64,000 nt of DNA from Candidatus Bathyarchaeia archaeon (lineage in GTDB: Archaea; Thermoproteota; Bathyarchaeia; 40CM-2-53-6). Under the pieces are notes generated by a model. That model was not told the DNA's origin and made no database searches. It saw only the letters and a list, made by a program, of their open reading frames with translations. The DNA lies in contig JBEKFP010000002.1 in assembly GCA_050013255.1 (NCBI GenBank), positions 416,001 to 480,000 of the forward strand. The letters run 5' to 3'. Below are positions 10,167 to 63,476 of this stretch, piece by piece (positions within the stretch are counted from its first letter, which is position 1; each line of letters opens with the position of its first letter). The position numbers and the translations under genes are program-made.

Positions 10167-10730
10167 TTGGAGGTCATCGATTGGTTCTATCAAGTCTTCG
10201 TCTGCTACGAAGAGTTGACTCATCTGCATCGACTGAGGGATTACCGTCAGTCTCGGATTCCCATACCATCGCTTCACCTCCAGACGCGTCGGGGCTGAAC
10301 CAGAAATAAAAGCGCTGGTTGTCCAGCGCAGCCCTCCAGCCCAGCAATTCACCGGGCGAGCTTGACCATTTAGCCAGTCAGGTTTTACGTGGTCAACAAC
10401 CAGCAACCAACATCGGCCCAGTCGGCTCTTTCGGGTACCAGAAACCCACATCCCGCCGTTGCCGGGGCTTCATCAACTGACGACTACCTTTGCCTACGAT
10501 TTCGAGCATGTATAAGGTGGATAGGTGGGTGGAAGTAATCAGCAGACGACGGACAGAACCAATCGATTCAAGATTCCTGCTGGAGTACTTTCTCTTTGAC
10601 AACATGCGAACATACCAACCGGCGATTGCATAATCGCGTCAACCGCTCTGGCAAAGAAAGCCAGGATCCTCTCAGATGAGGATCTCATCACTATGAGGAG
10701 ATCAAAGGCAAATCGAATACCTGGTTCTAG
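10167..10730 (+). pseudogene. vapC: vapC pseudogene (paralogue of 11711..12103), interrupted by a MITE and internally deleted
   Basis: TTG GAG GTC ATC GAT|insert|TCA AGA TTC CTG CTG GAG TAC; 3' part matches ~11985-12120 with a ~225-bp deletion and frameshifts. Confidence 0.85.
10183..10560 (-). mobile_element. 378-bp non-coding MITE with IS6-like TIRs and putative structured-RNA interior (copy A)
   Basis: Ends GGTTCTATC.../...GACAGAACC; flanks CATCGATT (10175-82) and AATCGATT (10561-68); interior homologous to 61462-61819. Confidence 0.85.
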
Positions 10731-61242: not shown

Positions 61243-61876
61243 CTAATGGTAAGCACGTTGTCTGAACTCGACTAGGAGGACGCTAATTCGTTTCGCTTCC
61301 CAGTCTACTTCATATTCTATGCGAATGTCTCCAATTCGGATTCGATAGAGGTCTTTCAGTCCGCGCAACTTCTTTACGTCGTATTCTGGTACGGGAGCTG
61401 GATTCTGCTTAAGCACCTCGAAGGCAATAACAATCCTCTCAACCTAGTGTTTGGGAATGTGGGTTCTGTTAACTTGTCGGCTCATTGCGTTCAGTGACCT
61501 CTCATGCCTAAAGGTGAGAAGTGTGGTAAGCAGTCTCGTCATCAGTTGATGAAAACGGCTCATTAAGCGATATGTGGGTTTCATAACCCGAAAGCTGAGC
61601 GGTTCGATGTTGGGTAATAGGTTGCTTTGACCAAGCGTAAAACCCTGACTAGGCGAAATGGTCTAGCTGGCCTGGTGAATGCTAGGCGAGAGCCGTGAGG
61701 TTCGCGGCCGTCGCGTCTGCAATTGAAGCGATGGTACAGGAATCCGTGACTGACGGTAATCTTGAAAGTCGATGCAGACGAGTTAACTCAAACGCATGTG
61801 CCGAAGAGCTAACAGAACCGGAATGTGCCTTAGCGACTTTCTTGCACGGTTTGAGATTATCAGCTCAAACTGGGAC
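61243..61876 (-). pseudogene. relE: RelE/ParE toxin pseudogene interrupted by a MITE
   Basis: With the insert removed: SQFELIISNRARKSLRHIPKH*VERIVIAFEVLKQNP..DVKKLRGLKDLYRIRIGDIRIEY..RAYH*. Confidence 0.88.
61462..61819 (+). mobile_element. 358-bp non-coding MITE with IS6-like TIRs and putative structured-RNA interior (copy B)
   Basis: TIRs GGTTCTGTTAACTTGTCGGCTCAT / GGTTCTGTTAGCTCTTCGGCACAT; perfect TSD GGAATGTG (61454-61, 61820-27). Confidence 0.92.
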
Positions 61877-62080
61877 TTACACGCCTAATTCTTTTCGCAG
61901 TTGAGTGAGCGTTACATAATGGCCCCTCTCAATCTCCCGCCGACTTTTCCTTATTCGCCTTCTTATCGACGGGGTTGGCACCTCTTCGGGCAGGAGTTGG
62001 GCCCGCAGGCGAAGAAGTTCAATTTTCACATCGTCCAATCTCGTAATGACTCTCCGAATCTCCGTTTGCGTGATGGCCAT
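61877..62080 (-). CDS. RelB-like antitoxin
   Basis: LLRLRAQLLPEEVPT..EIERGHYVTLTQLRKELGV directly upstream of the relE pseudogene. Confidence 0.8.
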   Translation of the reverse strand: MAITQTEIRRVITRLDDVKIELLRLRAQLLPEEVPTPSIRRRIRKSRREIERGHYVTLTQLRKELGV

Positions 62081-62175
62081 CGGTCTAAGCCCAACATAAC
62101 AGAATACCGGTGCGACTAATAATTGCATCTTGGCTCTCGCAAGTTGAAGGACTCAAAGGCAGCAATCATCAAGGC

Positions 62176-63227: not shown

Positions 63228-63476
63228 TCAGTGCGAATCCCTCATCTTGTCTAGGAGGCGTTTCATCTCCCCAGGGCTGGAGCACTCGGATCCGCTACCG
63301 GCTAAGTCGACTGTGCTTGGTTTGGGTTTCAGGAGTATGCCTGAACCTGAGTTGATTACTTCCAGTCGCGTACCCTCCCTGACCAAATACTTCTTCCTCA
63401 CTCTGACGGGGATAGTTACTCGTCCCTTTCTGGTAACGAGTACTTCTTCGTTGGTTCTGTTAACTTGTCGGCGCAT
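63228..63476 (-). CDS. AbrB/MazE-family antitoxin (orphan; N-terminus supplied by a MITE end)
   Basis: VTRKGRVTIPVRVRKKY; original ATG at 63510-63512. Confidence 0.85.
   Translation of the reverse strand: MRRQVNRTNEEVLVTRKGRVTIPVRVRKKYLVREGTRLEVINSGSGILLKPKPSTVDLAGSGSECSSPGEMKRLLDKMRDSH

Follow-up and report, generated by a model that had tools for sequence, protein, structure and literature searches.

How does a 358-bp insert that encodes no protein come to have a conserved interior, and what might that interior do? The question is raised by copy A, an insertion at positions 61462-61819 (forward strand) of a 64,000-nucleotide stretch of Candidatus Bathyarchaeia DNA (the window; contig C2, 416001-480000, in a 2.46-Mb genome of three contigs with 50% G+C), a host stretch that is also present in DNA runs from peat and wetland metagenomes. 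An earlier interpretation made from the letters of the window (the sequence-only reading) had proposed a miniature transposon carrying a structured RNA of a family it did not recognize. Our analysis indicates that copy A is probably a non-autonomous, internal-deletion derivative of a 1.25-kb tnpB element that has kept its terminal inverted repeats (TIRs), a TATA-like box and the scaffold of the TnpB guide RNA (omega-RNA), and that would home with TnpB supplied in trans.

Copy A begins with GGTTCTGTTAAC at 61462 and ends with TAACAGAACC at 61819. Its left TIR (GGTTCTGTTAACTTGTCGGCTCAT..., approximately 24-33 nt) was placed at 61462-61494 and its right TIR at 61787-61819, both on the forward strand and read from the ends of the element; the terminal 24 nt are identical at 20 positions, and a perfect 8-bp target-site duplication, GGAATGTG, borders the insert on the left (61454-61461) and on the right (61820-61827). 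Termini of the GGTTCTGT type combined with 8-bp duplications are typical of the IS6 family, and both are found here. Copy A is shorter than 600 bp and has TIRs and a target-site duplication, as do its sister copies; it lacks a transposase gene, keeps no open reading frame (ORF), occurs in multiple diverged copies and has relatives with near-identical ends that encode a DDE transposase. It is therefore a miniature inverted-repeat transposable element (MITE) of IS6 type, and the earlier description of a transposase-less miniature element with IS6-type ends was correct in each of these details.

At least six gene-less copies, copies A and B included, reside in this genome. Copy B (10183-10560, minus strand; 378 bp) is a sister element of another sub-lineage that has an extended hairpin at one helix, and its duplications are identical at seven of eight positions (AATCGATT and AATCGATG, i.e., AATCGAT(T/G)). 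It aligns with copy A over the full length at 65% identity (E 7e-31), with the conserved blocks in order, in agreement with the block-by-block correspondence that the sequence-only reading had drawn between copy A and the reverse complement of this segment; as that reading had also observed, there is no shared reading frame, and we found the frame to be kept in none of the mini copies. Two further complete mini copies have perfect 8-bp duplications, one at C1:668604-668959 (86% identical; AAAGCAAT) and one at C1:262180-262529 (CTTAATGC), whereas the copy at C3:219767-220037 is 5'-truncated and the copy at C2:82803-83527 (L015 1001-1725; duplication GGGCTAGG) contains a nested insert. Related copies were identified in 23 of the 401 sampled genomes of the class and in 19 of the 58 genomes of the same family. 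Signatures of mobility, namely TIRs and 8-bp duplications at distinct sites, are carried by four full mini copies, the nested copy and both tnpB elements of this genome, as well as by approximately 18 more elements in relatives.

The origin of the interior became apparent from the longer copies with the same TIRs. Two elements of approximately 1.25 kb, at C1:854026-855281 (8-bp duplication CGAAC[G/A]AG) and C2:62149-63427 (8-bp duplication CAGGATCT), have ends as in the mini element and encode an intact TnpB of at least 383 aa (C1:854101-855252 in the C1 element). The two proteins match Pfam PF07282 (Cas12f1-like TNB) with 77 and 86 bits against a cut-off of 26.3, TnpB matches NCBIfam guided_TnpB with 127 bits against a cut-off of 100, relatives of these proteins among TnpB and Cas12f have solved structures, and the RuvC and zinc-finger motifs are present (GIDRN, IVMEQL, CxxC..CxxC, DRDVNAARNI). 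In a MAFFT alignment, the interior of the mini element is homologous, in the same orientation, to the final ~250 nt of tnpB and the right end. Conserved block ATGTGGGT corresponds to the CxxC zinc-finger codons of tnpB, ATGTGGGTTTC to zinc-finger codons (SICG), GTAAAACC..GAC to the VDRDVNA codons (RuvC-III) and TGAAGCGATGGTA to the VEAMV codons.

The 3' end of tnpB is where TnpB systems encode the omega-RNA scaffold (PMC10691335). The conserved RNA of the mini element overlaps the tnpB 3' end, has the tnpB sense, extends to the right end of the transposon, and forms a multi-helix scaffold with a pseudoknot; judged by this position and homology, it is very probably the omega-RNA (guide-RNA) scaffold of TnpB. 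Within tnpB itself, synonymous-codon identity is 0.36-0.46 over most of the gene and 0.59-0.83 in the last ~110 codons, a rise that points to an overlapping functional RNA. The sequence-only reading had held that its proposal would fail if the conserved blocks translated to a known protein. The blocks do so, in TnpB; because the coding 3' end of tnpB and the guide-RNA scaffold overlap, the RNA survives as an explanation and its novelty does not. Likewise, of the ribozyme, guide or regulatory RNA that had been envisaged, a guide RNA is now very probable from the tnpB 3'-end homology, and nothing points to a ribozyme. In most of the full-length elements among L014, L028, L030, L031, L036, L044 and L045, the tnpB frame enters the right TIR and stops at a TAA within GTTAAC, 7 nt from the element end, such that the TIR is at once a transposase site, coding sequence and an RNA stem.

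The scaffold in copy A was delimited to ~282 nt, from GUCAUCAGU to the element end (61538-61819, forward strand), on the basis of tnpB 3'-end homology, pairing, covariation and fold z-score. The alignment took in 20 gene-less copies (five from this genome, 15 from relatives) over their final 300 nt, and RNAalifold returned 62 pairs, 29 of them with compensatory changes; a pseudoknot and a terminal hairpin spotted by eye were added to give a structure of 68 pairs. The measures that follow are pair counts on the MAFFT alignment. Across the 20 copies, 95.2% of the cells pair, compared to 27-39% in controls in which the 3' partners were slid by 1-3 columns; double-sided changes occur at 32 of 68 pairs (11-17 in the slid controls), the covariation score is 0.32 (0.04-0.08), and none of 500 shuffles attained any of these measures. 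Folded on its own, copy A is moderately more stable than its shuffled sequences (z -3.1). The ~280-nt structured RNA under structural selection that had been proposed as transposon cargo was thus borne out, with the larger alignment displaying the covariation whose lack had been named as grounds for giving the proposal up.

Several of the helices read from two copies were confirmed on the 20-copy alignment, including the compensatory pairs GCCCGG/CTGGGC versus GCCTGG/CTAGGC, GGGT/ACCC and CGTCTGCA/TGCAGACG. The AGTTGA/TCAACT closing helix was not, with a C-A opposition at one pair in 10 of 20 copies; instead, the 5' strand enters a pseudoknot and a GAGUYAAS segment pairs with the right TIR. 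In copy A, the 5' strand of the pseudoknot, UCAGUU (61542-61547, forward strand), pairs with the hairpin loop GACUGA at 61748-61753; across the alignment, 5' AUCAGU and the GACUGA loop of the 3' hairpin are paired in 89-100% of the copies, support that comes mostly from conservation, with one copy (L033) changed on both sides (CUGGU/ACCAG). The terminal hairpin (61782-61813, forward strand) is formed by GUUAACUC (61782-61789) and GAGCUAAC (61806-61813, right TIR positions 7-14), and in the alignment by GAGUYAAS and right TIR positions 7-12. At one of its pairs the 20 copies divide evenly between U-A and C-G (10 each) without a mismatch, and the hairpin follows six TIR variants (GTTAAC, GTCAAG, GTCAGG, GTTACC, GATGAA and GATTAG), of which GATGAA and GATTAG belong to tnpB-linked copies. 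An alternative pairing offered by RNAalifold, 5' GUYG with the TIR, is broken at one pair in 6 of 20 copies and is weaker than the terminal hairpin. The tnpB elements keep the 3' helices with covariation (e.g., CGCGCUUCCA/UGGAAGCG versus CGCGUCUGCA/UGCAGACG). A match to an already described Rfam family had also been considered; when Rfam 15 was searched at the gathering threshold on the whole window and permissively on the element, only chance-level matches were obtained (mir-84, 15 bits; rne5, 13.5 bits). Rfam covers few omega-RNA clades.

Could this structure simply have been inherited when tnpB was lost? All mini copies have a common deletion junction, with the conserved G of GUCAUCAG lying 76-83 nt from the left end. 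Helix 3 (8 bp, GCCNAGUC/GACUNGGC) belongs to the mini lineage, its sequence being absent from the coding versions, and shows double changes at six of its eight pairs, which indicates structural selection after tnpB loss; the gene-less lineage diversified under structural constraint. Moreover, three species-level genomes of a sister genus share an orthologous insertion (duplication TGTCGCAT), the core of which, at 87-96% identity, is about as conserved as the DNA on its flanks (81-94%). In sister genus g2, the mini copies include an old orthologous insertion and IS6-type transposase is rare (2 of 22 genomes), which suggests that the mini-element family is no longer mobile there; TnpB homologues are found in 12 of 22 genomes of that genus, with up to 16 matches each.

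The gene-less copies also appear to retain a promoter. The left end of copy A contains a TATA-like box, CCTAAAGG (61507-61514, forward strand), ~28 nt upstream of the scaffold start. Variants of this A/T box (CCTAAAGG, TTTTAATT, CTTATACA and similar) recur at the left ends of other copies, A/T makes up 84-95% at positions -30 to -27 relative to the conserved G in 19 copies, and the full-length elements have the same box ~25 nt ahead of the start codon of tnpB. The box-to-start distance fits an archaeal TATA box, and the box is thus a putative promoter, judged from its sequence and spacing; the internal deletion would have set the parental promoter directly before the scaffold.

A transposase that could mobilize these copies is encoded elsewhere in the genome. 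Two DDE transposase genes are full-length (C1:183284-184531 and C2:560136-561365), and fragments occur as well. The C1 enzyme, 416 aa with an N-terminal SWIM/zinc region, matches Pfam DDE_Tnp_IS240 with 59.8 bits, against a cut-off of 27; among NCBIfam models it scores highest with transpos_IS6 (NF033587), at 114.8 bits just short of the curated cut-off of 125. The genes lie in elements of ~3.1 kb with GGTTCTGT ends (C1:182371-185509, L013 1001-4139; C2:559197-562269), which also carry several passenger ORFs for membrane-like proteins. The left TIR of the C2 element, GGTCCTGTTACTTCTTCGGTTGACC, is identical at ~22 of 25 positions (hand count) to the TIR of a mini sub-lineage (L025 left); a DDE element of a relative (L071) has 24/24 TIRs, a perfect 8-bp duplication and ends identical to those of copy A at 19 of 20 positions. 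The search for longer copies with the same ends thus yielded both tnpB and transposase elements. No matching duplication was found around the C2 element, as expected if it formed by recombination between copies. At none of 30 DDE loci does the DDE gene share an element with tnpB or the RNA, which places transposase, nuclease and guide RNA in separate elements with common ends. IS6-type transposase is present in 21 of the 58 genomes of the family (14 of 22 in the genus of the window) and TnpB in 28 of the 58.

In other TnpB elements, a read-through transcript carries the flank as the guide (PMC10691335). In copy A, the last hairpin of the scaffold ends 6 nt before the element end, and on the model of that architecture, with read-through of the right end assumed, the predicted guide segment would be GGAATGTGCCTTAGCGACTT (61820-61839, forward strand), comprising the duplication and flank. 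With a guide of this kind, the transposon-associated motif (TAM), the short motif that TnpB requires next to its target, would be expected immediately 5' of the guide match in the empty site. When the flanks of 25 independent insertions were tabulated in RNA orientation, the left flank had T at -2 and R (A/G) at -1 in 24 of 25, whereas the mirrored motif was present on the right side in 10 of 25 (Fisher p ~2e-4); position -3 was T or A in 23 of 25, and position -4 was never G. Around six DDE-carrying elements with perfect duplications, a small sample, the T-R motif occurred on 2 of 12 sides. This pattern fits a TnpB TAM at the T-R position of the empty site, and in copy A the candidate TAM is TTG (61451-61453, forward strand), which adjoins the left duplication on its 5' side. 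Once the site is occupied, it is ...ACC rather than T-R that precedes the guide match. The motif may stem from TnpB-dependent survival of insertions, from a target preference of the transposase, or from both. Contigs of the core were recovered from two RNA libraries (X19, X20). A contig from one library spans 184 nt and agrees with 61565-61748 except for a single mismatch, with no coverage over the adjoining 340 nt on each side; in the other library, a sister-copy contig passes through the right end into a different flank. Among the joints listed for two peat DNA runs, none connects 61461 to 61820 as an empty-site allele of copy A would, which is not evidence of absence.

The sequences themselves show mobility signatures, a covarying RNA structure, homology to the tnpB 3' end, an asymmetric motif in the flanks and intact genes for TnpB and the DDE transposase; we infer a promoter, a guide position, TnpB loading in trans, cleavage and homing that would operate in the following manner. 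The IS6-family DDE transposase encoded elsewhere would recognize the retained TIRs, move copy A and make the 8-bp duplications. The retained left-end box, which would drive tnpB in the parent, would direct transcription of the RNA from ~28 nt upstream; the RNA, beginning at GUCAUCAGU, would adopt roughly a dozen helices along with the pseudoknot, end its scaffold with the right-TIR hairpin, and run on into the duplication and flank as guide. The two full-length elements would supply TnpB in trans, which would take up this RNA and cut chromosomes that have the empty site (T-R motif, 8 bp, right flank), and repair from the occupied copy would lead the insertion to be retained or spread. The occupied site would be protected by its ...ACC in place of T-R.

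Several points weigh against this reading. Between the mini-element RNA and the coding version, the 5' half has diverged; the loop of the pseudoknot is also different in the tnpB-linked copies, such that compatibility of the mini RNA with the resident TnpBs is not guaranteed. No convincing pseudoknot partner could be spotted by eye in those copies. Some mini-bearing genomes (G218, G295), albeit incomplete ones, show no close TnpB. Since no Rfam family matched, the omega-RNA assignment derives from position and homology and not from a curated model. The flank motif spans no more than 2-3 nt and lies on the wrong side of one insertion (L052), and its DDE-element control comprises six elements. 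The RNA contigs show neither strand, ends nor level and could reflect DNA carry-over, which makes expression a weak hint. Finally, IS6 transposition is replicative and leaves no empty donor site; the benefit of homing must therefore come from empty alleles in other chromosome copies or cells.

These points leave room for other explanations, the likeliest of which is an inert relic, i.e., a deletion derivative that kept the tnpB 3' end by chance and whose conservation was inherited, with no present function. The coincidence of the conserved blocks with tnpB codons would agree with a relic, as would the mini-bearing genomes that show no close TnpB and the most degraded copies (L027 and L033), and some of the compensatory differences between sub-lineages could predate the loss of tnpB. 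A relic is nevertheless unlikely given the single deletion junction common to the mini copies and helix 3, whose double changes imply compensation within the gene-less lineage; the frame was lost while pairing was kept, the distance to the TATA-like box was kept as well, and the orthologous copy is as conserved as the adjacent DNA across three species. If the RNA is functional, it could still act independently of TnpB, as a ribozyme or a regulatory or antisense RNA merely descended from tnpB sequence, and the large RNA with its pseudoknot, its diverged 5' half with a stronger helix gained, and the lack of an Rfam match could be read in that way. We regard this as very improbable: the RNA is in the tnpB sense and so is no antisense regulator, the whole 3' half including the TIR hairpin is common to the tnpB-linked copies, no ribozyme family was matched, and the left-only flank motif fits the targeting geometry of TnpB.

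There are two further explanations. The interior and right-end hairpin might act as DNA, in the form of subterminal transposase-binding sites or DNA hairpins; subterminal repeats are common in transposons, and TIR positions 7-12 form part of the terminal hairpin, which covaries with the TIR variant. Little credence can be given to such DNA-level signals, however, as G-U pairs are frequent and fall on one strand only (at several pairs, 15-19 of 20 copies have them), nested helices and a pseudoknot over ~250 nt far exceed the needs of a binding site, the left end has no matching inner repeat, and the DDE-carrying elements with the same ends are without such an interior. Alternatively, the RNA might end at or before the right end, with the stretch between scaffold and TIR tip as a built-in guide, for instance against element ends. 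That stretch does vary between copies and the terminal hairpin could form a 3' boundary. Nevertheless, the stretch belongs to the inner TIR, agrees with the left TIR of its own copy, and is missing or very short in several copies (c3, c4, L019 and L020); moreover, a contig of an RNA library continues past the right end, and only a guide derived from the flank accounts for the flank motif. A fixed internal guide is therefore the least probable of the alternatives, and a deletion derivative of a tnpB element that keeps its guide-RNA scaffold is the explanation that we retain.

Other observations concern the surroundings of copy A and the wider family. Copy A interrupts the remnant of a ParE/RelE-type toxin gene (61243-61461 and 61828-62128, minus strand) located downstream of its antitoxin; the 57-aa C-terminal piece of the toxin matches PF05016. 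The frame carries across the reconstructed empty site, but it contains a TAG two codons away from the duplication and has no obvious start, which indicates that the gene decayed apart from the insertion of copy A. A solitary left-TIR remnant of the mini-element family (63453-63476, forward strand; 24-nt match, 96%) provides the first eight codons (MRRQVNRT, reading outward) of ORF 63228-63476 (minus strand), an 82-aa MazE/AbrB-type antitoxin (PF04014, 37 bits), and the left TIR of copy A has an equivalent outward-reading ATG (MSRQVNRT...). The nested insert at C2:82803-83527 is ~375 bp long and is placed in a loop of the RNA; on the opposite strand it has a 109-aa ORF with CxxC...H...CxxC motifs suggestive of an HNH-type nuclease and no match in Pfam. 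Ends of the GGTTCTG type with 8-bp duplications were also found at C1:681796-682240 (443 bp, 127-aa ORF) and C1:1228749-1230407 (1.66 kb, small membrane-like ORFs), neither of which contains tnpB, the RNA or a transposase, and such ends seem to mobilize varied cargo. Contigs of two peat metagenomes (X16, X3) join 61511 to 61635, skipping 123 nt, which makes them a shorter mini-element variant that is without the 5' part of the RNA and probably derives from another organism. In the DNA runs, depth rises 10- to 40-fold in spikes over the left TIR and the 3' core, so that the family is abundant in these peat communities, and some left ends continue into tnpB (loose end AAAAGATGAAAGTTGAGGCTAAGTTATGCG).

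We tentatively suggest, with somewhat more reservation than confidence, that TnpB homing has been grafted onto a replicative IS6-type DDE family, in which the gene-less copies would be self-promoted mobile guide cassettes, the right TIR the last scaffold stem, and T-R the TAM. If true, the presence of T-R at 24 of 25 insertions and not around DDE-only elements would mean that only nuclease-homable insertions persist, and the bias would be a population-level signature of RNA-guided drive on a DDE transposon; the asymmetric flank motif makes the idea that homing keeps transposons testable for a replicative DDE transposon. The association also shows that TnpB and its guide RNA are not bound to IS200/IS605 or IS607 chemistry; in Bathyarchaeia, IS6-type TIR transposons are the vehicles on which they travel and within which they decay. 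Free of coding constraint, the mini copies are natural experiments that trace the outline of the RNA preserved for this clade of TnpB, which is ~280 nt long, contains a pseudoknot and closes with a stem derived from the TIR; they also suggest a short TAM. This is useful in testing compact archaeal TnpBs.

Elements of a related design are known from the IS200/IS605 group. Stand-alone omega-RNAs that work in trans have been described (Altae-Tran 2021, summarized in PMC10691335), as have DDE-associated TnpBs with inverted ends (PMC10691335), and palindrome-associated transposable elements (PATEs) often encode omega-RNAs (Meers et al., PMC10055086). Like stand-alone omega-RNAs and PATE-like IS200/IS605 derivatives (PMC10691335, PMC10055086), the mini element is protein-less, keeps only its ends and a guide-RNA scaffold, and is expected to depend on sister elements for TnpB and transposase in trans; the RNA is thus no new class, nuclease-less guide-RNA elements having already been published. 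Those IS200/IS605 elements have asymmetric ends, no target duplication, a Y1 (or serine) TnpA and single-strand excision, with PATEs defined by asymmetric subterminal palindromes and the lack of TIRs, whereas the mini element has TIRs of 24-33 nt, 8-bp duplications, an IS6-type DDE transposase and a last RNA hairpin built from the TIR. Copy A works like a PATE, but the TIRs and 8-bp duplications rule out membership. The homing model was shown for IS605-family TnpB (PMC10055086, PMC10690162), and the empty/occupied-site geometry of the mini element matches it, here on a DDE transposon.

Among DDE transposons, TnpB branches DDE-1 to DDE-6 and solo TnpBs with shared ends have been reported (PMC10691335). 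As in those branches, tnpB here lies inside DDE inverted repeats with its 3' end within 250 bp of the transposon end, and as in their solo tnpB elements, the ends are common with transposase-bearing elements. The main text of that study names only IS630 (branch DDE-6) and is without IS6-type ends, 8-bp duplications, gene-less derivatives that retain only the omega-RNA, or a flank motif (PMC10691335); a full-text search of the literature found no paper that connects TnpB with IS6 proper. Three features go beyond the published outline: the stem at the end of the RNA that derives from the TIR, the fusion of promoter and scaffold, and the asymmetric T-R motif in the flank. The family shares GGTTCTGT-type termini, 8-bp duplications and a DDE_Tnp_IS240-matching transposase with IS6 (IS26, IS257/IS431 and the archaeal IS6 clades). 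Classical IS6 elements are ~0.8 kb and carry the transposase only, whereas here a 416-aa enzyme resides in ~3.1-kb elements with passengers, and sister elements carry tnpB or only its RNA. There is also a likeness in architecture to Fanzor/TnpB in eukaryotic TIR transposons, in which an RNA-guided nuclease resides in a TIR (cut-and-paste/DDE-type) transposon and the guide RNA overlaps the 3' end and the TIR; the IS6-type TnpB elements, with an archaeal host and a typical DRDxN TnpB of ~380-400 aa, would be the prokaryotic counterpart.

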